From: Verrucomicrobiales bacterium
GTDB taxonomy: Bacteria; Verrucomicrobiota; Verrucomicrobiia; Verrucomicrobiales; SLCJ01
Length of the DNA stretch: 64,000 nucleotides
Direction: 5' to 3'
Assembly: GCA_046075565.1 (NCBI GenBank)
Contig: JBJTQJ010000004.1
Location: forward strand, 1-64,000
Shown here: positions 69 to 37,208 of the stretch, one piece after another
Numbering within the stretch: the first letter of the stretch is position 1
Layout: every line of letters begins with the position of its first letter
Program-made: the position numbers and the translations under genes
Notes under the pieces: generated by a model
Database searches by the model: none
Told to the model about the DNA's origin: nothing
What the model saw: only the letters and a program-made list of their open reading frames with translations

Positions 69-2519
69 ATGACAATATCGAACACCAAAATCGTGGTTGT
101 GGGCGGGGTGGCTGCCGGAGCGTCGTTCGCCGCCCGGGCGCGGAGGTTGTCGGAATCGGCGGCCATCACGCTGGTCGAGCGGGGCCCGGACGTTTCGTTC
201 GCAAACTGCGGACTGCCCTATTTCGTCGGCGGCGAGATTTCCGATCGTTCCCGATTGGCCTTGCAGACCCCGAAGTCGTTGGCGGAGATGCTGGCCATCT
301 AGGTCCGGGCTGGCACGGAGGTGGTCTCGATTGACCGGGCGTCAAAGTCGGTGCGGGTGAAACGCCTGTCCGATGGCGAGGAACAGACCTTGGCCTACGA
401 CAAACTGGTGCTGGCTCCGGGAGCCGCTCCCTTGCGACCGCCACTGCCCGGGATCAACTCCCGCCGCATTCTCACGTTGCGCAACCTTCAGGATATGGAT
501 GCCATTGTCGCGGCGGCGGCTGGTGCCAAACACGCACTGATCATCGGCGCTGGCTTCATCGGATTGGAAATGGCGGAACAGCTGGTGCGCTTGGGCAAGA
601 CCGTCGAGTTGGTCGAGCAGCAGCAGCAAGTTCTCCCGCAACTCGATCCGGAAATGACCACCCAGATTTTGGCGTGGTTGCAAATGAATGGTGTTGCCGT
701 CACGCTCGGGGATGGCATTGCCGGCTTCGAAGAAAGCTCTTCTGGAATCTCCGCCACCCTGCAGAGCGGTCGCCGCATTGAGACGGATTTAGTGATTCTT
801 TCCATCGGTGTGCGCCCGGAAAGCCGCCTCGCTTCTGAAGCGGGCTTGACCCTTGGGGCCCGCGGAACCATCGCGGTGAATGAATGGATGCAAACCAGCG
901 ATCCGGATATACATGCTGCCGGCGACGTCGTGGAATCCCGCGATCGTCTCACCGGCGAACCGATGAACCTTCCCATGGGTGGGCCAGCCAACCGCCAAGG
1001 CCGGGTCATCGCGGATCACTTGTTCTTGGGCGACAAAGCCCGTCCTTACCCCGGCCATATCGGCACCGCCATCGTCCGCGTATTCGATGCCACGGCGGGC
1101 ATGACCGGATGGACGGAAAAACGCCTGCGCCAAGCCGGGCGGGCCTACCAAACGACCACGGTAACGGATAACAACCATGCCGGGTATTTTCCCGGCGCGG
1201 TTCCCGTGACCTTGAAGATTCTCTGGGAACCGGAAACCGGAAAACTTCTCGGTGCGCAATCCACCGGACCGGACGGCGTGGACAAACGTCTCGACGTGCT
1301 GGCTACCGCGCTGGCTGGTGGCCTCACCACCGCCGATTTGGTCCATCTGGAACTCAGTTAAGCGCCGCCCTTCGGAAGTGCCCGCGACGTCGTGAACACG
1401 GCCGGCTTCGCGGCGGAAAACCTGAGCGACGGCCTGGTCAATCCCGTGGCCGCCATGCCGGATGACCCCTCTCTCCAAATCCTTGATGTGCGTCCACCGA
1501 TGATGGCGGAAAACGATCCCATCCCCGGGTCGATCAATATCCCTTTCAAAGACCTGCGATCCAGACTCGGAGAGATCGACCGGACACGCCCGATTCTCGC
1601 GGTGTGCGCCCTTGGCAAGACCTCCTATTTCGCCTCGCGTGTCTTGTCACAAAACGGCTTCGCGGCCAAATCGCTGGTCGGCGGTTGGCGGCTCGTCGGC
1701 CGTGCCTCCGCCAAAGCCCCTATTTCCAAACCTGACAATTCATCACCAGTCCTCGCCGAATCCACCATGAAAACCACCACCCTTGATATCACGGGCCTCA
1801 TGTGCCCCGGCCCATTGCTCAAACTTCGCGAGGCCATGGATGCCATGGACTCCGGTGACTGCCTCGAAATCCGAGCCTCCGATCCGGGATTTGCCCGCGA
1901 CGTGGAAGCCTTCTGCAACACCACCGGCCACACCTTGCTCGGTCTGGAAAAATCCCAAGGCGTTCTCACCGCCCGCGTGCGGAAAGGTGCAGGTGTCAGC
2001 CCGGCCAAAATCTGCGCGGTGGGCGGCAACGCGGCGGTTGTCACCCCGAAATCCGGCGCCATCCTCGTTTGTTTCAGCGGCGAACTCGACAAGGCCATGG
2101 CCGCCTTTATCATCGCCACTGGAGCGGCCGCCATGGGCGGCAACGCCACCATCTTCTTCACCTTCTGGGGACTGAATGTCCTCCGCCGCGATAACCCGCC
2201 ACCGGTGCAGAAAGATCTGATGGGCAAAATGTTCGGCATGATGATGCCTCGTGGCGCGGATAAACTCCCGTTGTCCAACATGCACATGGCCGGCATGGGA
2301 ACGGCCATGATGAAATACCGCATGGGTTCCAAGAATCTCCCCAACCTGCCTGGATTGATCGATGCCGCCCGCAAGGCTGGTGTGCGTATGCTCGCCTGCT
2401 CGATGAGCATGGAAGCCATGGGAATCACCCTCGAAGAACTGGTGGATGGAGTCGAAGTCGGTGGAGTGGCCGACATGCTTTCCTGCTCGGCCACCAGCGC
2501 CACCTCGATGTTTATTTGA
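69..2519 (+). pseudogene. CoA-disulfide/persulfide reductase fused to rhodanese, TusA/SirA and DsrE-like domains; about 816 codons interrupted by in-frame TAG (300-302) and TAA (1359-1361)
   Basis: ORFs 69-302, 321-1361 and 1392-2519 are in one frame. Motifs GGVAAG (FAD), SFANCGLPY (active Cys), GAGFIGLE (NAD), LELS*APPF, rhodanese loop VCALGKTS, TusA CPGP, DsrE FFTFWGL and CSMSM. The stops may be sequence artefacts. Confidence 0.9.
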
Positions 2520-11504: not shown

Positions 11505-12788
11505 TCACCCGAGCCTTGAGCCAAGCCGCGGGTGGGCGGCCTGCTCCGAATTGTCTATTACCTTTTCCGACGTCGGATCCCATTTCAAAGGAGCCCCGCT
11601 ATCGATGGCGACGATGCCGAGCATGCCGAAGGAGGCGGAGCGGTGGGCCGCTTCTTCGGGGGCCGTCGTGGTCTGACGCGAGCGGATGCAGTTGATGAAA
11701 TCCTGGTGGTGATTTGTGATTTTCGGGTCGTAGCCCTCGGGAAGGCGGCGCAACAATTCCGGGTCGGAAGCCTTGATGGACCCACGATCCGCATGAATCC
11801 ATCCGTTTTCGCCGGTAAACTTCGTGCCCATGAAATTGCTGCGCACTTCAACAACGCGTCCGTCCTCGAAGGTGCCCTTGTATTCGTAATCGGTGTAAAC
11901 GTCGAAAAAGTCATGGGTCGATTTTTTGCCGGTTCCTTCGACCTTCACGGGTCCGGTACCATCGAGTTTGAGCGTCCAGAGCGCGATGTCCACATGATGG
12001 CCGACCCAGTCGAGCAATTGGCCGCCGCCGAAGGTGTTGTGCCAACGCCAGTTCCAAGGGTGCAGCAGCGGATGGTAGGGGAAATTCTTGACCGGACCGC
12101 ACCAGCCCGCCCAGTCGAGGTTTTCCGGCGACTTGCCAATGAGCCCGGCGACCTGATCATCGGGCACGTGCTTTTTGATGCTCATGCCCTTGGGGGTGCC
12201 GCATTCAAAACGCGAAAGCTTGCCGAGGGCATCATTCTGGATGAGGGCGCGGAAACGGCGGAACTCGCCCGTGGAGCGCTGCCAGCAACCGGTCTGCCAG
12301 ATTCGTTTATTTTTCTGGACCGCCTTTACCAATTCGCGGCCTTCGGCCAGCCCCCAGGTAAATGGTTTCTCACCATAGATGTCCATGCCGGCGTTCGCGG
12401 CGGCGATGCCAACCTCGGCGTGCTGGTGATCGGGCAAGCTGAGGCAAACCACATCAGGTCCGGTGACGGCAAGAAGGTCCTTGTAGTTTCCGAAAGCCTG
12501 GCAATCCTAGTTCTTGTATTTCGCATCCACTTTCGCTTTGGCGGCCGCCACCCGGTCTTTGTCCACATCGCAGACAGCCACCACGCGGACCCCGGGGATA
12601 TTGAGGAAGCTATTCATATTCCCCGTGCCCATGCCTCCCGTGCCGATGATACCCATGGTGATTTCGTCATTCGGGGAAGAACTTTGCCCCCTGACCCAGG
12701 CCATGGGCACCAGCCCGAGCGCGGAGACGGCAGCCCCCAAAAAACGACGGCGGTGGAGACGGGCAATAGGCTGGGAAGATTGGGCCAT
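11505..12788 (-). pseudogene. Tat-exported Gfo/Idh/MocA oxidoreductase with in-frame TAG at 12507-12509
   Basis: ORFs 12507-12839 and 11505-12452 share a frame; RRRFL Tat motif, GIIGTGGMG, AKYKN*DCQAF, GEKP, DWVGHHVD. Confidence 0.88.
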
Positions 12789-12979
12789 ATCCCGGTCGAT
12801 ACCCCTCCATTCCCCCATTTCTTGCGGAAAAATGGCCAAAATGCGCCGGAAAGGGAGAAAAAATGCGGGCGGCGCAATTTTTTTGGAGTCTTTTTGCCCC
12901 GGTTAGCGTTAGAGTCTTAGTCGGGCGGCATAGGCCGGCCACATTTGAAATCAATCAAACCACCACCCAAAACCATCCA

Positions 12980-13639
12980 ATGAAATTATTCACCAACCTG
13001 CTGTCCCTGCTCGGCGCGCTCGCCATCGCGGGGGGAACCTGCATTGCTGCGGACTGCGAAAAAGAATGTCCGAGCAAGAAGAAAGACAAGGAAGAACCCA
13101 CGCTGGCCGCCTGCAAGTGTGAACCCTGCAAGTGCACCGAGTGCAAGTGCGCGGAGAAAAAAGAAGGCGCCCTGATTGCCGAAGGCGACTGCAAAAAAGA
13201 ATGCCCCGGCAAGAAGAAAGAAGGCGAAGAAGAAGGTGAAGGCACCTTGATCGCCGATTGCGGCAAGTGCAAGGACAAGAAAAAAGAGGGTGAAGAAGGT
13301 GAAGGCGAAAAGAAAGAAGGCGAAACCGCCCTCATCGCTGGCAGCTGCAAAGACGGTTGCAAGGACAAGAAAAAAGAAGGTGAAGAAGCCGAAGGCGAAG
13401 GCACCCTGATTGCCGAAGGCGACTGCAAAAAAGAATGCCCCGGCAAGAAGAAGGAAGGCGAAGAAGGTGAAGGCACGCTCGTCGCTGGTAGCTGCAAAGA
13501 CGGTTGCAAGGACAAGAAAAAAGAAGGTGAAGAAGCCGAAGGCGAAGGCACCCTGATCGCCGACAACTGCAAAGACGGTTGCAAGGACAAGAAGAAAGAA
13601 GGCGAAGAAGGCGAAGGCGGAGAGCTTCTCGCTGCCTAA
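12980..13639 (+). CDS. Secreted Cys-rich modular repeat protein (219 aa, 8 modules)
   Basis: Signal peptide MKLFTNLLSLLGALAIAGGTCIAA; modules [C-x2/3-C]-K-rich-(E/G)n-(T/A)L(I/V/A)A; strongly biased codon usage; own terminator. Confidence 0.85.
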   Translation: MKLFTNLLSLLGALAIAGGTCIAADCEKECPSKKKDKEEPTLAACKCEPCKCTECKCAEKKEGALIAEGDCKKECPGKKKEGEEEGEGTLIADCGKCKDKKKEGEEGEGEKKEGETALIAGSCKDGCKDKKKEGEEAEGEGTLIAEGDCKKECPGKKKEGEEGEGTLVAGSCKDGCKDKKKEGEEAEGEGTLIADNCKDGCKDKKKEGEEGEGGELLAA

Positions 13640-13665: not shown

Positions 13666-13706
13666 AAGCGACCGCGATGGCCTCCATCGCGGTCGTTTTC
13701 TTTTTT
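13666..13706 (+). terminator. Rho-independent terminator
   Basis: GCGACCGCGATGG-cct-CCATCGCGGTCGT followed by a T-rich tract. Confidence 0.85.
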
Positions 13707-13747
13707 CCCCGTGGACGAGCCGCCTGCTCAAGGGCAAGTTTGTCCTA

Positions 13748-15277
13748 ATGTCCCGCCATCTGAAGTTCTTCAGCCTCCTCCTGCTCCTGATCGCAGGCAC
13801 GGCGGTCCTTTCATTGTGGTCGGATTTTCCCTATTTCTACCACACGGACGAGCCGGGCAAGTCGCGGCAGATCATCGAAGGATCCCGCAATCTGCATCAT
13901 CCCCCTCTCATGCTGGAGTCGGCGAATGTCCTGGTGCGGGTGCTCGGGCGTCCGTTGGAATCGCAATCGGTGACGGAGACCGGTCGTCTGCTTTCAGCCC
14001 TGTTCTGCGCTTCGGCGGCCGCCTTGCTTGTGCTGACTTGGTCAAGATTCCGCCCTTGGCCGGAGGCTATGCTGGCCGGCGTGTTGTTGCTTCTCCAACC
14101 CGACGTGCAAGAATACGCCCGCTTTTTCAAAGAGGACCCATCTTTGATGTTCGGATGGGCCGCCGTGTTCGCCGCCATGGCTTTCGTCGAGAAACGACCG
14201 GATCGCTGGAGTTGTATGGCTCTCGGCGCGGCCGTTGCCATCGCGGCTTCAGCCAAATATGTGGGAATTATCATGGTCATTCCCGCCGCATGGATCTTAT
14301 TCGTCACCGCTCGCCAACGGAGTAATGAGGCCGCATTTTCACCCTCGAAAGAATTTTATCTACCCGCCGTGGTGGTTTTCCTTGTCCTCCTCGCCGCCAT
14401 CAATCATCGGCTGTGGTTGGATCCTGCCACATTCAGGGCGTCACTAGGCAAAGAGACGACACTTGTTCTCGAAGGTCAGGGAAGTGTCACCAAATCCTTG
14501 CCTCACGGTGGATTCTTCGAGCGCCTGTTGAATCGTTCGGTCCATCTGCTGCCATTTGTGGCATTGGGCTGGTGGACAACCTGGAAACAACGTCGGGAAC
14601 TTTCATCGACCATTGTCCTACTCGTTCTCTCTCCTTGGGCGCTGGCCCTCATGCTGGCGTTTTCCGCGAAAGACTCCGGCCGGTATTTCATGCCGGGCAC
14701 TCTGGGTCTGGTGGCGGCATCCACCTTGGGTGTGAGTGCGCTTTGCAATTTGGCAAAGTCCACGAAAGTCCAAACCCGCGTCGCCTTAACTTGCACGCTG
14801 ATTGTCCTCGGCGGTAGTGTCGCCCGTTGCTGGGATTATTTCCGGGGATTTCAATCCGATGCCCGCAAGGAAATGCTCGTTTGGATTTCAGAAAACCTGC
14901 CACCCGGATCCCATGTCCTGCAGGGCAGGAAAGTCACCTTGCCCGATTCCTCAGGTCAGTATGCCGATGCCTGGCACATTCAATTGCCCGGGCACATCCG
15001 CCTCGACACTTGCAAATTGGTGTCATCGTTGGTGAGCAGCCCGGCCGAGGCACGCGCGCGAGGATTCACCCACATCGCGTTGTCCGGGGATGAGTATGAT
15101 GTTTACCTCGGCGATAACAAAGCGAAGGCCTCGAAAGCGGACGATTTCGCCCGGCGCCGGGACTTTTATCAGACCCTCTTCCGTGACGGGAAAATCATCT
15201 GGGATCGCCCTTCGGGGAAAGTTGGAACCCACCAACCACCGCTGCGCCTGATCGAGTTACCGCCCGCTCCTCCTTGA
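13748..15277 (+). CDS. GT-C fold membrane glycosyltransferase (ArnT/PMT-like)
   Basis: HTDEP after TM1, HPPL, many TM helices, ASAKY, GRYFMP, soluble C-terminal domain. Confidence 0.75.
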   Translation: MSRHLKFFSLLLLLIAGTAVLSLWSDFPYFYHTDEPGKSRQIIEGSRNLHHPPLMLESANVLVRVLGRPLESQSVTETGRLLSALFCASAAALLVLTWSRFRPWPEAMLAGVLLLLQPDVQEYARFFKEDPSLMFGWAAVFAAMAFVEKRPDRWSCMALGAAVAIAASAKYVGIIMVIPAAWILFVTARQRSNEAAFSPSKEFYLPAVVVFLVLLAAINHRLWLDPATFRASLGKETTLVLEGQGSVTKSLPHGGFFERLLNRSVHLLPFVALGWWTTWKQRRELSSTIVLLVLSPWALALMLAFSAKDSGRYFMPGTLGLVAASTLGVSALCNLAKSTKVQTRVALTCTLIVLGGSVARCWDYFRGFQSDARKEMLVWISENLPPGSHVLQGRKVTLPDSSGQYADAWHIQLPGHIRLDTCKLVSSLVSSPAEARARGFTHIALSGDEYDVYLGDNKAKASKADDFARRRDFYQTLFRDGKIIWDRPSGKVGTHQPPLRLIELPPAPP

Positions 15278-15827: not shown

Positions 15828-15944
15828 TCCTGGCAACGACCTACTCTCGCAAGACCTATCGTCTTACTACCATTGGCGCGGCAGTGTTTCACTTCCGGGT
15901 TCGGAATGGAGCCGGGTGGGACCACTGCGCTCTGGTCACCAGGA
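15828..15944 (-). rRNA. rrf: 5S rRNA
   Basis: CCTGGTGACC...CCATTCCGAACCCGGAAGTGAA...GAGAGTAGGTCGTTGCCAGG. Confidence 0.95.
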
Positions 15945-16171
15945 GTCTGGAGCCTTCGGCCGCACGCTTTTTGAGCGGGCGGCGGGGCTCCAGGGATCCT
16001 GAGGACCGAATGAACGGGCCTGGGGACTTGGAAAAGAGCGCGCGGCAAGCGGGGCACGGTTCTTTGTGGGAACTGTTTAGCCCAGCGGGTCGCTGGCATC
16101 TGCACACAGGAATGGAAAATTTGCAGTCAGGCGACCATCTGTCGCTCTGCGAAGCCAAAGTGAATTGGCAT

Positions 16172-18996
<2,825 letters not shown>

Positions 18997-19179
18997 ATGT
19001 TAAAATGAGTTTGTTCCGGCCCCGGAGGGCCGGCAAGCGTCATTACAAATTTTCGCCGTATTCACTAAGATCGCAGAGCAGATTTTCTCGCATGAAACTG
19101 CAATTTTTCTACCCTGTGTGCAGATGTCAAAGACCATTGGATTCGACTTGCTTGGGAGACGGAAGCTTCCTGAAAAGAA

Positions 19180-19256
19180 TGGTGGGCCAGACTGGACTTG
19201 AACCAGTGACCCCGCGCTTATCAAGCGCGTGCTCTAACCAACTGAGCTACAGGCCC
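19180..19256 (-). tRNA. tRNA-Ile(GAT)
   Basis: GGGCCTGTAGCTCAG...TTGATAA...GGTTCAAGTCC...GGCCCACCA. Confidence 0.97.
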
Positions 19257-19303
19257 TTTTGGAATTCAAACTTCAAATACGGGATTTGAAATTCTACAGA
19301 TGG

Positions 19304-19379
19304 TGGTGGAGGCAACCGGATTCGAACCGGTGACCTTCTGCGTGCAAAACAGACGCTCTACCAACTGAGCTATACCCCC
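19304..19379 (-). tRNA. tRNA-Ala(TGC)
   Basis: GGGGGTATAGCTCAG...TTTGCAC...GCCTCCACCA with the G3:U70 pair. Confidence 0.97.
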
Positions 19380-19604
19380 TCATTCCGGGAATGCTTTGAT
19401 GTCTCAGGAAAAGAAAAGCTGAAAAGTGCGCCGCGCGGAATCGCGCGCGAATGTGTTTATAGTTGTGAGTGGTCCGGCCTCGCGGCTCGGACGAACCCCG
19501 GTTCCGCCGAAGCGGTTCCGTTTTCGATCGGCTTGCGCCGACCGGTGGTTCCTAGACCTTGTTGCCGATATGATCGCTGTGAGACGACCGGCAACATGAC
19601 TCCA

Positions 19605-21168
<1,564 letters not shown>

Positions 21169-31968: not shown

Positions 31969-33030
31969 CTATTGTTGTTGCTGCTGCTGTTGCTGCAAGT
32001 CGTCGTCGGAGCCGATGTGGTAGGCACCGGGGAAGACGGTCACAGCGGGAGTCGGAACTTCCTCAACGGGAAGGAGATCGGCGTAGAGAACGAAGGTTTC
32101 AAAGATGGCCGCGCCGACGGCGATGAGGCGCGACTGGAAGCGGTCGATGTAGTTGTGCAGTCCTTCATCGAGGATTTCATCGATGCTCGAGAACTCGAGG
32201 TCGGCGCGCAGGCGCCCGGCCAAACGCAAGGCATTGACGGGCAGGGCCGTGCCGCCGGCGGTCAGTTCGGCGACCTGGCGCAGGGCGCGGTCCACCTCAA
32301 GCACGCAGAAGCGCATGGCGCGGGGGAAGGAACCACTGAGGAAGAGGAATTCGAGGATTCGTTTGGGCTCGAGGTGGTTGCAGATGGCGTGGAAGGGATG
32401 GTAGGCGGAACAGGAATGAAGTAACGAGGCCCAGCGCAACGGCGCGGCGGAAGGATGAGGAGGCATCTCCAATCCGAGCGAGGAGCAGACGTCCACCTGA
32501 CGAGAGGTCTGGTCGGCGCGTTCGAGATAGGTGCCGAGTTGCAGGAACAACCATTGTTCGCCCCGGCCCATGGTCGAACGGGCGACCCCCTGGAAGAGAT
32601 AGGAGGCGCGCATGATCTCCTCGTAGTATTCATTCGGCTGCTGCACGCGCAGGCGTTCGGCTTTCGGCGAATGGAGGAAGAGATGGATGTCGTTGAGGGT
32701 GCGCCAGAATTCGTCGGAGATCTGGTCGCGCACCATGCGGGCATTCTCGCGGGCAGTGCGCACGCAGTTGCGGATACAAGTCGCATTTTCATCCCGCACA
32801 CTCAGGTATTCGGCGATCCACTCGCTGGTCACGGACGGGTAAAGTTTGGCGTATCCTTCTTCCTCACCCGTGGTCATGAGGATGGGTTCCCAGAAGCTGG
32901 CTTCGCCGCCACCACCGGATCCAGCATCCATGTAGAGCTGGCTGTTGGCATGGAGAAGACGGGCGAGGTTTTCGGCCCGCTCCATGTATCGGGCCATCCA
33001 ATAAATGCTGTCGGCGACGCGGCTGAGCAT
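31969..33030 (-). CDS. Alpha-E domain protein (DUF403) with Gln8 C-terminus
   Basis: MLSRVADSIYWMARYMERAEN, ARENARMVRDQIS, LGTYLERAD, FPRA. Confidence 0.93.
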   Translation of the reverse strand: MLSRVADSIYWMARYMERAENLARLLHANSQLYMDAGSGGGGEASFWEPILMTTGEEEGYAKLYPSVTSEWIAEYLSVRDENATCIRNCVRTARENARMVRDQISDEFWRTLNDIHLFLHSPKAERLRVQQPNEYYEEIMRASYLFQGVARSTMGRGEQWLFLQLGTYLERADQTSRQVDVCSSLGLEMPPHPSAAPLRWASLLHSCSAYHPFHAICNHLEPKRILEFLFLSGSFPRAMRFCVLEVDRALRQVAELTAGGTALPVNALRLAGRLRADLEFSSIDEILDEGLHNYIDRFQSRLIAVGAAIFETFVLYADLLPVEEVPTPAVTVFPGAYHIGSDDDLQQQQQQQQ

Positions 33031-33103
33031 GGGAAATGGGGAATGGGTGGGTTGGGGGACGGAATTCTAGGAATGATTTCGCCCGCATTGCGGGATTGCC
33101 ATC

Positions 33104-33250
33104 AATGACGAAATACCCAAACACCCAAATACCCAATGCATGAAGAAACGCGTAGTCCAGAGCGCCAATATTCCGGAAGCAAGCTGCCCCGCCCGCCGGA
33201 TTCGGACTTCGTTCTTCGGATTTCTTTGGGTATTTGGGTATTTCGTCATT
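33104..33250. repeat. MITE-like element with 26-bp terminal inverted repeats built from AAATACCC octamers
   Basis: AATGACGAAATACCCAAACACCCAAA (33104-33129) vs TTTGGGTATTTGGGTATTTCGTCATT (33225-33250), one mismatch. Confidence 0.7.
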
Positions 33251-33291
33251 CGTGTTTGTGCCTAAGGGACAGAATGCTGAGTGAGGGTAGA

Positions 33292-34767
33292 CTACGCTCC
33301 GGCGGGAGCCGAGCCGGGGCGGCCGCTGTCGTCCCAGAAGACCCAGGTGTCTTTACTGCCGCCACCTTGGGACGAGTTGACGACAAGCGAACCTTTCTTC
33401 AAGGCGACACGGGTGAGCCCGCCGGGCACGACCTTCACCCGTTTGCCATAAAGGATGTAGGGCCGTAGATCGATGTGGCGGCCTTCGAAATGGTCGTCCA
33501 CGAAAACCGGATGGCGCGAGAGCGAGAGCACCGGCTGGGCGATGTAGTTGCGCGGATTGGCAATGATGCGGGCTTTGAATTCCTCGCGCTGCGCTTTGGT
33601 GGAAGCCGGTCCCATGAGCATTCCGTAGCCGCCGGATTCATTGACGGCTTTGACCACGAGCTTGCCGAGATTTTCCAAGATAAATGTCCGCTCGTTTTCC
33701 TCGGAAGCGAGATGCGTGGGAACATTCGGGAGGATGGGCTCCTGATCGAGATAGTATTTGATCATCCTCGGCACGTAGGCATAGACGGCTTTGTCGTCGG
33801 CGACACCGGTGCCGATCGAGTTGGCCAACGCGACATGCCCATTGCGGTATGCGCTGACCAATCCGGGCACCCCGAGCATGGAATCTTCACGGAAGACCAT
33901 GGGGTCAAGGAAGTCGTCGTCGATGCGCCGGTAAATCACATGCACCTGCACGAGTCCACGCGTCGTGCGCATGAACACGCGGTCGCCACGCACGATGAGG
34001 TCACGTCCTTCGACAATGGGGATACCCATCTGGCGGGCCAGGTAACAATGCTCGAAGTAAGCGCTGTTGTAGACACCGGGCGTGAGCAGGACAATGACCG
34101 GGTCCACCACTCCGGCGGGAGCGAGATGGGCCAGGGTATCGCGCAGCATGGTGCCGTAGGAATCAACCGGTCGTACGGGCAGTGATTGCAGCAAGTGCGG
34201 AAACGCCCGCTTCATGGCCATGCGGTTCTCGAGCATGTAGGATGCGCCGGAGGGCGAACGGGCATTGTCCTCGAGCACAAAATAGGTGCCGTCGCGGTCG
34301 CGCACGAGATCGGTTCCGCAGATGTGGATGTAGATATTGTGCGGCACCTGCACGCCGTGGAAGGCTTTGCGGTAATGCGATGCCGATTCAACGACCTCGC
34401 GGGGGACGACACCATCGTTCACGATGCGTTGGGCGTGGTAGACGTCGTGCAGGAAAAGATTGAGGGCGGTGATGCGTTGGACGAGACCGGCCTCGACCTG
34501 ATCCCATTCCGAGCGGGGAATGACCCGCGGCATGAGGTCGAAGGGGAAAATGCGCTCGGTGCCACTTTCATCGCCATAGACGGTGAACGTGACGCCTTGC
34601 TTCAAGAAAGCGGCGTCCGTGGTCACCTGCTTCTGGGCGTAGTCCTCGGGCGAAAGTTTCCCCAGCGCCTTGATGAGGCTTTGGTAATGGGGGCGGGCGT
34701 TGTCTTCGCTGGTGAAGACCTCGTCGAAGAAGTCACCGGGTTCGTAGGATTCAAAAATTCCGGGCAT
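33292..34767 (-). CDS. Circularly permuted type 2 ATP-grasp protein
   Basis: [59 protein letters not shown]. Confidence 0.95.
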
Positions 34768-35624: not shown

Positions 35625-37208
35625 ATGCCCAGACTGCTTCCCATTTTCGCCCTTCTCATTGCCGCCGCCGCCCTGCGGTTCCATGACCTGCCCTCGCGGG
35701 TCATGCACACCGACGAGGCCATCCATGGGGTGACGGTCGGGCGTCTGCTCGCGGGCGAGGCTTTCAAATACGATCCCAAGGACTACCACGGCCCGACCTT
35801 GCACTACTCGACCCTGCCCGTGGCTTGGGCGCGCGGGCAGCACCGATTCCAGGATTTGGACGAAACAACCCTGCGCGGGGTGACGGCCGGCTACGGCGTG
35901 CTCCTCGTGCTGATGACTTTCCTTTTCCGGAAAGAGCTTGGCGAAGCAGGCGCCGCGTTCGGCGCGGTTTTGGTGGCGGTCTCGCCGATGATGGTTTTTT
36001 TCAGCCGCTACTACATCATGGAGTTGCCGTTCGCGGTTTTCCTCACGCTGCTTGGCTTCGCCTGCTGGCGCTTCACCACGGAGACCGAACCGCGACGGCG
36101 TCGCGTCTGGTGGATTCTAGCCGGGGTCTCGGCCGGGCTTCTGCATGCGACCAAGGAAACCTTCGTCCTGCACGTTGCGGCCATGGCACTTGCCGCCGCA
36201 ATCGCCGGTGGACGTGCGAGCATCACGGCTATCCCCGGATTCCTGCAGCGGCATTGGAAAGCCATCCTTGCCTCCTGTGTGCTGGGCTTTGTGCTTTCCG
36301 CGGCTTTGTTGAGCCATGGATTCCGCCGACCGGAAGCGATTTGGGACGGCATCCGCACCTATCTTCTTTATTTGAACCGGGCTGAAGGAACGGATGCCGG
36401 CCACAACCAACCATGGAATTACTATTTCGCGGTGCTGTTTTTCCTCAAGCCAAGCGGCGGGTTCTGGTATTCGGAGATTGGAGTGCTGATTCTCGGCCTC
36501 GCGGGAGCGGTGCGAGCATGGTGGCCCGGAGGTGGTGATGCAAAACGTTTTCCCCGCGCTCTCGCCGCCTACACCATCGCCACCATGGTGATTTATTCGG
36601 TGATCCCTTACAAGACCCCGTGGTCCTTCCTCGCCACCATGCATGGATTGATGCTGCTTTCCGGTTATGCCCTCGCGGGCTGCCTGCCAGATCGCAAAGC
36701 GGGCAAACCACCCGCTGCCAAACTCGCATTGATGGCCGCCGCGTGCCTGGCCTTTGCCGCAACCATCGCCCATGCTTTGCTCTACGACCGCAGAATGATC
36801 ACCGAGGCCCCGGCCGATCCCGAGCAACCCATGGTCTATGGACACACCAGCCAGGAAATCCTCGAACTGGCTCGCCAAATTTCCCAGCTCGAATCCTCCG
36901 AAGGCCGCACCCTCACGCTCGCCATCGGAGAAGAAGAAAATGGCTGGCCTCTGCCGTGGTATCGGAGGAAAGCACTCGGCTCGAACAGCTATGGCCGCAG
37001 CCTCCCCGACCTCAAGGAACCACCCGACATCGTGGCCGTATCCACGGACCATTTCCCCGACGCCGCCCAGGCTCTCTTCGCCACCCATCTCTGCAAGAAC
37101 TACGAAATCCGCCCCGGAGTCTCGCTCCATGTCTTTTTCAGGCGCAGCCTGGCCGGACTTCAGGAGCCCGCTACTCCCGTCATGAAGTCGCCCGACAAAG
37201 GATCTTGA
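35625..37208 (+). CDS. TIGR03663-like GT-C membrane protein
   Basis: MHTDEA, YDPKDYHGPTL, SRYYIME, ATKET, IPYKTPW. Confidence 0.8.
   Translation: MPRLLPIFALLIAAAALRFHDLPSRVMHTDEAIHGVTVGRLLAGEAFKYDPKDYHGPTLHYSTLPVAWARGQHRFQDLDETTLRGVTAGYGVLLVLMTFLFRKELGEAGAAFGAVLVAVSPMMVFFSRYYIMELPFAVFLTLLGFACWRFTTETEPRRRRVWWILAGVSAGLLHATKETFVLHVAAMALAAAIAGGRASITAIPGFLQRHWKAILASCVLGFVLSAALLSHGFRRPEAIWDGIRTYLLYLNRAEGTDAGHNQPWNYYFAVLFFLKPSGGFWYSEIGVLILGLAGAVRAWWPGGGDAKRFPRALAAYTIATMVIYSVIPYKTPWSFLATMHGLMLLSGYALAGCLPDRKAGKPPAAKLALMAAACLAFAATIAHALLYDRRMITEAPADPEQPMVYGHTSQEILELARQISQLESSEGRTLTLAIGEEENGWPLPWYRRKALGSNSYGRSLPDLKEPPDIVAVSTDHFPDAAQALFATHLCKNYEIRPGVSLHVFFRRSLAGLQEPATPVMKSPDKGS

Follow-up and report, generated by a model that had tools for sequence, protein, structure and literature searches.

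What a cell might gain from a small exported protein made largely of cysteine pairs, charged spacers and short aliphatic motifs is the question raised by one gene in a 64,000-nucleotide stretch of the genome of a Verrucomicrobiales bacterium (assembly GCA_046075565.1, contig JBJTQJ010000004.1, positions 1 to 64,000; hereafter the window). The open reading frame (ORF) encodes a 219-residue protein, P0001, with a translation matching that given in a first-pass annotation of the same DNA, which described it as a secreted polyprotein of eight cysteine-pair modules and as a candidate metal-binding peptide or precursor of a ribosomally synthesised and post-translationally modified peptide (RiPP). 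The reading favoured here, tentatively and from patterns in the sequence, is that of a putative stand-alone metal buffer: a disordered, exported (periplasmic) protein whose thiolates would act without prior modification.

An exported repeat protein and its family

The ORF, the Sec-type signal peptide and the eight modules are all borne out, as is the annotated count of 20 cysteines and no aromatic residues in the mature part. Beyond residue 24, cysteine makes up 10.3% of the sequence, alongside Glu (22%), Lys (21.5%) and Gly (16%), with no Phe, Trp, Tyr or His at all; a twenty-first cysteine lies inside the signal peptide. Each module, of 20-28 residues, runs from a cysteine pair (CxxC or CxxxC, with a CxC cluster in module 2) through a Lys-rich and then a Glu/Gly-rich stretch to (T/A)L(I/V/A)A. 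The repeated xLIA linker of the annotation stands in so far as a hydrophobic motif closes the modules, but not in its strict form, the consensus being the looser (T/A/E)-L-(I/V/L/A)-A. By the -3/-1 rule that describes signal-peptidase sites, the signal is probably cleaved after ..CIA or ..IAA. AlphaFold2, given the deeper of two alignments, models residues 3-23 as helical with a pLDDT (predicted local distance difference test) of about 90. The mature part is predicted to be disordered, with a mean pLDDT of 42.5 from an alignment of 13 sequences and 49.3 from one of 113, and with no strand predicted.

The cysteine at the end of the signal peptide invites comparison with lipoproteins, in which that position carries a lipobox, [LVI][ASTVI][GAS]C. 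The corresponding stretch of P0001, ..IAGGTC, has G, G and T at positions -3 to -1 and does not match, while the signals of most relatives end in PLAFA followed by G, E or D. As the orthologue P0003 has no cysteine in its signal stretch, P0001 is not considered a lipoprotein. Internal lipoboxes were likewise rejected, a cysteine directly following the motif in just 19 of the 297 linkers measured.

A long open frame could also be the by-product of a purine-rich tandem DNA repeat rather than a gene, and the opposite strand across the repeat is indeed open as well, in frames of 211 and 233 amino acids. At the DNA level, Tandem Repeats Finder detects periods of 75, 147 and 222 bp within the gene, with scores of 315-571. 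However, the differences between repeats are synonymous or conservative in the annotated frame: modules 5 and 7 share one protein sequence and differ at two synonymous codons, and the linkers of modules 3 and 6 differ only synonymously at the Thr, Leu and Ala codons, with Ile replaced by Val. The synonymous differences imply that this frame is under selection. Furthermore, the repeats follow a signal peptide both at 24 genome loci and in those members that were printed from 112 clusters, the leader is conserved, a terminator-like hairpin follows the stop codon, and the gene is mostly single-copy across six other genera. The probability that this is not a gene is vanishingly small, and for practical purposes the idea is refuted.

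The locus is covered by short-read contigs from four metagenome DNA runs, all belonging to a single freshwater study, and none shows a frame-breaking difference. A second, identical copy of the gene in the assembly (C4:68873-69529, C4 being the contig to which the window belongs) was rejected as a paralogue; it sits at the mirror position of a perfectly palindromic contig, and the repeat gene is hence single-copy in its own genome.

Table 1. Positions in the window of the repeat gene, the parts of its product and the adjoining transcript signals
Feature	Position	Strand	Basis or remark
CA-rich, G-poor leader without Shine-Dalgarno-like motif	12942..12979	+	directly before ATG
Coding sequence of the 219-residue repeat protein P0001, stop codon included	12980..13639	+	ORF, profile relatives, synonymous repeat differences
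Sec-type signal peptide, residues 1-24 (MK, hydrophobic core, ..GGTCIAA)	12980..13051	+	sequence; AlphaFold2 helix
Module 1: DCEKEC (CxxxC), basic/acidic spacer, PTLAA	13052..13111	+	
Module 2: CKCEPCKCTECKC (three CxC, metallothionein-like spacing), spacer, ALIA	13112..13180	+	
Module 3: EGDCKKEC, spacer, TLIA	13181..13255	+	
Module 4: DCGKC (CxxC), spacer, TALIA	13256..13339	+	
Module 5: GSCKDGC, spacer, TLIA	13340..13414	+	protein-identical to module 7
Module 6: EGDCKKEC, spacer, TLVA	13415..13486	+	
Module 7: GSCKDGC, spacer, TLIA	13487..13561	+	protein-identical to module 5
Module 8: DNCKDGC, spacer, ELLAA; hydrophobic motif is the protein end	13562..13636	+	
Intrinsic-terminator-like hairpin (15 pairs, 9 G-C, loop of 3; 13666-13698), then T run	13666..13708	+	after stop

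A word-based search with P0001 retrieved two relatives of the same plan with different module numbers, low-complexity words crowding the 8000 candidates, so that a profile search was needed; six-frame searches of related genomes added further relatives. When 1.84 billion cluster representatives were searched with a profile built from 13 members, 112 proteins matched at E ≤ 0.001, 35 of them at E ≤ 1e-10, and with P0001 included the family comprises 113 members. As the annotation had anticipated of homologues, the number of modules varies, from one to 12 with a median of three, while the cysteine pairs and the hydrophobic linker are retained; the median module length is 20 residues and an aliphatic motif closes each module. 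The signal peptide takes the form MKLxL..PLAFA, with the first cysteine pair immediately after it, in the members printed. Over the whole family the mature sequence (7556 residues) contains 10.7% cysteine and 0.4% aromatic residues. Two variants, P0027 and P0093, have few or no cysteines in their repeat modules and keep the linker motif.

In agreement with the annotation, which did not recognise the family, P0001 matched no Pfam or NCBIfam model at E ≤ 10. A scan of the 113 members with the same libraries found no model matched by more than four of them, and the matches are weak and compositional except in P0055, in which three cysteine-pair modules are followed by a DUF2147 domain (E 2.9e-25). 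This is the sole domain fusion seen in the family; a search with the family alignment for longer fused forms found none, which is weak evidence. Similarly, the family profile gave no match in the PDB at E ≤ 1, a pattern search of the genome contigs with P0001 gave 40 pattern matches of which none was confirmed, and the ESM Atlas returned unnamed Verrucomicrobiota clusters only (best score 0.80), which is a lead and nothing further. Word searches of the literature yielded no account of this family, with the strings HCGKC, CDKCKK, GKCKKKC and CKDGCKD leading to unrelated papers only, and its proteins are called 'hypothetical protein' in those sources that name them. The family is absent from every library and literature search run and has as yet no name.

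The family is nevertheless real, and it is confined to one order in the genomes sampled. The profile search found it in 47 of 401 sampled genomes of the window's order: in one of three other genomes of the window's own taxonomic family (f1), in 45 of 119 of a second (f2), and in none of three more (f4, 0/119; f5, 0/38; f6, 0/118). Within f2 the distribution is uneven, with no match among the 46 genomes of one genus (g4) and matches in 13 of the 17 of another (g20); outside g4, 45 of 73 sampled f2 genomes carry the family. An even sample of the phylum (401 genomes) contained four genomes with a match, all belonging to f1 or f2, and none outside the order. Most carrier genomes have one locus.

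Cysteine pairs as putative metal sites

Under the favoured interpretation, P0001 would be a Sec-exported, intrinsically disordered repeat protein working without enzymatic modification, and would serve as a buffer or sink for ions of thiophilic metals (Zn2+, Cu+, Cd2+ or similar), whether in the periplasm, on the cell or outside it. Each module would supply a dithiol site just after a short aliphatic patch, and in some modules this site may be elaborated into a Cys2His2-like (HCGxC...H) or metallothionein-like (CxCxxCxC) one. The spacers, rich in Lys and in Glu, would keep the chain soluble and extended, and several modules would probably close around one ion. The thiols would presumably stay reduced, metal would presumably be bound, and the ions named are candidates.

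The cysteine pairs are the conserved core of the family, and the conserved chemistry is that of a dithiol. Among 462 spacings of 0-6 residues between adjacent cysteines (111 members), CxxC accounts for 199, CxxxC for 87 and CxxxxC for 84, and just one of the 113 members has two or fewer cysteines beyond residue 20. Some modules carry more than a pair: HCxxC occurs in 23 members, HC(G/S)xC with a second His within 12 residues in 15 (in the form A-H-C-G-x-C...H), and CxC clusters in 12, module 2 of P0001 included. The HCGxC...H and CxC modules read as classic metal-ligand patterns, and lend some support to the annotation's suggestion of metal binding, which is plausible. Sites for c-type haem (CxxCH) were considered and rejected, as the His precedes the pair rather than following it. 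The composition, with almost no aromatic residues and with spacers rich in Lys, Glu, Asp and Gly, is like that of metallothioneins, which in the metal-free state are disordered, as the mature part is here predicted to be. The AxA-type end of the signal, with the first cysteine pair directly after it in the members printed, is also consistent with an exported metal-binding chain.

Whether exported cysteine pairs would persist as thiols depends on the oxidants around them. The genome to which the window belongs, 100% complete by marker genes, gave no match to DsbB, VKOR, DSBA or Thioredoxin_4, searches that match three to nine of 14 control genomes; among five other carrier genomes DsbB was found in none and VKOR in two. 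With none of these four families found, exported cysteine pairs need not be oxidised, and together with the HCxxC, HC(G/S)xC...H and CxC modules this argues for metal coordination rather than structural disulfides.

The surroundings of the gene point to a protein without partners. Neighbours were scanned with Pfam at 24 loci in nine genera, covering 20 ORFs at the window's own locus, 108 of 135 greedily called ORFs at ten loci, from which ORFs cut by an edge or overlapping the repeat gene were left out, and 62 of 109 ORFs, the ones closest to the repeat gene, at thirteen more. No neighbour family is shared across genera, as would fit a protein that works as made.

Several observations weigh against a metal buffer. 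The annotation had proposed looking for copper and zinc exporters nearby, and none of the 24 loci has a gene for metal efflux, metal sensing or copper/zinc resistance next to the repeat gene. Cysteine forms about 10% of the protein, a third of the roughly 30% typical of metallothioneins. The aliphatic (T/A)LxA motif, the most conserved feature besides the cysteine pairs, is left unexplained by metal binding; it is under purifying selection and survives in the low- or no-cysteine variants P0027 and P0093. AlphaFold2, which often predicts zinc-ribbon folds for real ones, gives no zinc-ribbon-like fold here. Finally, the searches for thiol oxidases covered four families, and other oxidases could exist.

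Metallothioneins, including the bacterial SmtA and BmtA, are cytoplasmic. They share with the repeat protein an abundance of cysteine and lysine, a virtual lack of aromatic residues, CxC and CxxC spacings (in module 2 of P0001) and disorder in the absence of metal. By contrast, the repeat protein is exported, is poorer in cysteine, and contains aliphatic linkers and charged spacers of some length; neither P0001 nor any of the 113 members matched a metallothionein model in Pfam or NCBIfam. If the favoured interpretation is correct, free-living Verrucomicrobiales would carry a periplasmic counterpart of metallothionein in one small stand-alone gene, and the regular architecture would make it an easy test case for metal binding by disordered repeat proteins.

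Disorder and charge can also be read structurally. The protein could be a disordered, Lys/Glu-rich polyampholyte of the cell envelope with a structural or protective role, its regularly spaced aliphatic motifs acting as 'stickers' and, with the cysteine pairs, forming reversible hydrophobic or disulfide cross-links that would give a gel in the periplasm, a redox buffer or, as with other low-complexity periplasmic proteins, a stress chaperone. The predicted disorder and the strictly ordered succession of basic, acidic and aliphatic stretches within every module would suit such a chain, as would the conservation of the linker even where the modules have few or no cysteines (P0027, P0093). The CA-rich leaders without a Shine-Dalgarno-like motif, found at 24 of 24 loci, were also counted in its favour, together with the frequency of envelope and secretion genes among the neighbours: tgt-yajC-secDF at five of ten loci, and lgt, lpxA/lpxC, LptF/G, SecG, YkuD and PMT_2 elsewhere. 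These neighbourhoods, however, amount to genus-specific synteny; the lack of disulfide-forming machinery among the four families searched in the window's own genome speaks against enzymatic cross-linking, and the His-containing and CxC modules would go unexplained. Of known proteins, Asr (NF033636) and the MXKDX pentapeptide repeat proteins (TIGR02953) are comparable in being small, signal-bearing, charged, repetitive and probably disordered periplasmic products of stand-alone genes, but the matches to them are weak and compositional (two and three of the 113 members respectively, E 0.001-0.007), and both lack cysteine pairs and an aliphatic linker. A structural or protective role of this kind is on balance rather unlikely.

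Possible linker cleavage and proposed cysteine modification

The annotation inferred that the linkers are processing sites from which about eight peptides would be released, and the sequence pattern is compatible with this. In such a polyprotein the chain, once exported, would be cut after each (T/A)LxA by signal peptidase I or another envelope protease into dithiol peptides of about 20-25 residues. Such peptides would be diffusible metal-binding, redox or signalling agents, and no modifying enzyme would be required. Measured over 111 members, the residue at -1 of the linker is Ala in 80%, the preceding residue is Leu, Ile or Val in 88%, that at -3 is Leu, Thr, Ala, Val or Ile in 82%, and the residue at +1 is mostly Gly, Asp, Glu or Ser, with Pro not among the seven commonest, a pattern that fits the -3/-1 rule. 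Four to five residues ahead of the motif's last position there is often a Gly or Pro, a feature shared with the PLAFA ends of the signal peptides. The next cysteine follows one to three residues past 237 of the 297 linkers. In 92 of the 111 members the protein ends exactly on the motif, so that each module, the last included, has one form: a cysteine pair, a spacer and a hydrophobic end. The presence of one to 12 modules, near-identical within one protein, recalls multi-copy peptide precursors, and the linker is under purifying selection and retained in variants with few or no module cysteines. At three of three loci of genus g38 an M16 peptidase gene lies within about 1.2 kb, which counts as one observation because a single genus is involved.

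Against cleavage, the neighbourhoods scanned in different genera have no protease gene in common. The internal sites lack the membrane-spanning core by which a site is presented to signal peptidase I, the motif is low in information, and a coincidence of unit boundary and protein end would equally result from ordinary tandem duplication. Release of peptides at the linkers is on balance unlikely. Slightly less likely again is the fuller version of this idea, in which the logic of the signal-peptidase site is reused so that cutting at every (T/A)LxA would free up to a dozen dithiol peptides of about 20 residues with a native-like aliphatic tail, serving as unmodified ribosomal metallophores or redox shuttles. 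Secreted metal-binding peptides would in that event be made without any biosynthetic gene cluster, and a linker that served as a cleavage site would define a new kind of bacterial peptide precursor. Known multi-copy precursors include the multi-core cyanobactin precursors of the PatE type and the fungal repeat proteins processed by Kex2. Like these, the family has near-identical short modules in variable number, a conserved short separator and an end at a module boundary. Unlike these, it has no linked processing or modifying enzyme, its cleavage is putative, and its motif is aliphatic and signal-peptidase-like rather than dibasic or a recognition sequence.

The annotation also drew an analogy with HvfA/oxazolin. 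In a bufferin- or oxazolin-like reading of the repeat protein, its cysteines would be modified in trans by an MNIO (DUF692) enzyme before export to give copper-binding heterocycles. The likeness lies in a Sec signal followed by tandem cysteine repeats of about 17-25 residues, rich in Glu, Gly and Lys, in a variable number of modules and in presumed periplasmic metal binding, as in Buf_EGKCG, the oxazolin HvfA and other bufferins (PMC12452194; see also PMC11252979 and PMC11626156). According to PMC12452194, Buf_EGKCG precursors keep a strictly conserved gene order of precursor, MNIO (PF05114) and partner, the latter being DUF2063, often with DoxX, and repeat-type members are modelled by AlphaFold2 as a beta-helix with the cysteines pointing inwards. 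Of four features of that group, the Sec signal is shared here and three are not. EGKCG occurs in none of the 113 members, P0001 included; the scans of 20, 108 and 62 neighbouring ORFs showed no PF05114, DUF2063 or DoxX gene; and the AlphaFold2 model is disordered rather than a beta-helix. The aliphatic (T/A)LxA linker is not described for Buf_EGKCG in the passages of PMC12452194 consulted. Buf_EGKCG is mostly from Pseudomonadota, unlike the present family from Verrucomicrobiota; 'Verrucomicrob' has no occurrence in the main text of PMC12452194, a survey of the MNIO landscape. Nor did DUF2282 (Buf1) match any of the 113 members at E ≤ 0.01, while P0001 matched no Pfam family at E ≤ 10.

The genome does hold one MNIO (PF05114, 114 bits), but it lies on another contig (C40 of genome G000, locus L017, 7119-8674), directly behind a precursor-like ORF of its own. 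The product of that ORF carries a signal peptide, ends in ..GDGCPACGLG and matches an EF-hand weakly (E 8e-5, below the cut-off), and a 126-residue ORF without a Pfam match follows the MNIO. The arrangement resembles an independent MNIO RiPP cluster whose precursor bears an EF-hand and is the natural candidate for the substrate of this enzyme. In ten other carrier genomes (95-99% complete), MNIO was not found in six and is never adjacent to the repeat gene in the other four. More generally, the linked modifying enzyme, dedicated protease or exporter expected of a RiPP was not seen at the loci scanned, neither a radical SAM enzyme nor an ABC exporter occurring among the neighbours, and what linkage there is amounts to genus-level synteny (tgt-secDF in g32, M16 in g38). 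The MNIO-type interpretation is thus not supported; it is judged very improbable and nearly excluded. If, instead, the protein is an unmodified thiolate buffer, none of the MNIO chemistry of bufferins and oxazolins would be needed, and the buffering of metals outside the cytoplasm would gain a third route, and a simpler one.

The annotation's further statement that no modifying enzyme lies in the window holds for its unique half, the remainder being an inverted repeat, the exceptions being the housekeeping pair lepA-lepB and, 18 kb from the repeat gene, an ATP-grasp/Alpha-E pair. The latter consists of a circularly permuted ATP-grasp gene (CP_ATPgrasp_2, E 7e-166) adjoining an Alpha-E domain gene at 31969-34767 (-). 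Transglutaminase-like genes are often found with such pairs, and at two loci of genus g20 (L026, L029) the repeat gene adjoins paired transglutaminase-like genes; ATP-grasp/Alpha-E or transglutaminase genes are adjacent to it at only these two loci, in one genus.

The locus and its surroundings

The upstream gene is divergent, and a strong hairpin lies 3' of the stop codon, from which it follows that the repeat gene is most likely monocistronic with its own terminator, as annotated. Hairpin-like sites are not in excess in the region (five, against 3.2 ± 1.7 in shuffled sequence), and the one at 13666 is by far the longest. The 35 nucleotides before the ATG are 83% A+C and 3% G. The leaders at the 24 loci average 77% A+C and 8% G, against 52% and 29% for 246 rough ORF starts used as controls, and none contains a Shine-Dalgarno-like motif, against 35 of the 246 controls; this contrast is only rough because the controls include miscalled starts. 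No Rfam family matches the leader. Leaders of this kind, rich in C and A and without a Shine-Dalgarno sequence, may go with strong translation, and the conservation of the leader supports a real mRNA that is probably well translated.

Further upstream, promoter-like blocks vary by genus. Six g20 loci (L026, L028-L031, L033) share GGAAC-N18-TTC(T/C)(C/T/A)A about 60-95 nucleotides before the ATG, a block that presumably resembles promoters of extracytoplasmic function (ECF) sigma factors. Loci of g32 carry CGAATAAA..TCTCA/TCTGA, and the blocks of g38 and g40 look sigma-70-like.

The flanking genes are likewise particular to each genus. In g32 the repeat gene stands divergent beside tgt(-yajC)-secDF at five of seven loci, in g38 DUF456 and DUF1802 genes accompany the M16 peptidase at three of three, and in g40 an SDR gene adjoins at two of three; g20 has mixed neighbours, and the f1 relative has lipid A genes and secG.

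At the window's own locus a membrane glycosyltransferase of the PMT/PMT_2 family (ArnT-like), one of two in the window (13748-15277 and 35625-37208, both +), lies directly downstream of the repeat gene, an arrangement that none of the other 23 loci shows. On that ground, and because Ala or Glu replaces the Thr in many linkers, the idea that this neighbour O-glycosylates the linker Thr was rejected. A complete rRNA operon (16S, two tRNAs, 23S, 5S; 15828-21168, -) starts 2.2 kb downstream of the repeat gene. Upstream, at 11505-12839 (-), is a Gfo/Idh/MocA oxidoreductase gene with a twin-arginine-like signal (..RLHRRRFLGAA..), broken by one in-frame TAG (..DAKYKN*DCQ..; codon 12507-12509). A short-read contig of run X1 covers this codon without a difference, which leaves two readings, a pseudogene or a genuine nonsense allele.

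Positions 18509-41254 and 41255-64000 of the window form a perfect inverted repeat of 22746 nucleotides without a spacer, and the mirror copy of the repeat gene extends this symmetry about 41254/41255 to the whole contig. The palindrome is most likely an assembly artefact arising from a fold-back read, so that the assembly counts the whole content of the window twice. Near the start of the window (321-2519, +) lies a sulfur-trafficking pair, apparently unrelated to the repeat gene, in which a rhodanese-TusA-DsrE fusion comes after a pyridine nucleotide-disulfide oxidoreductase.

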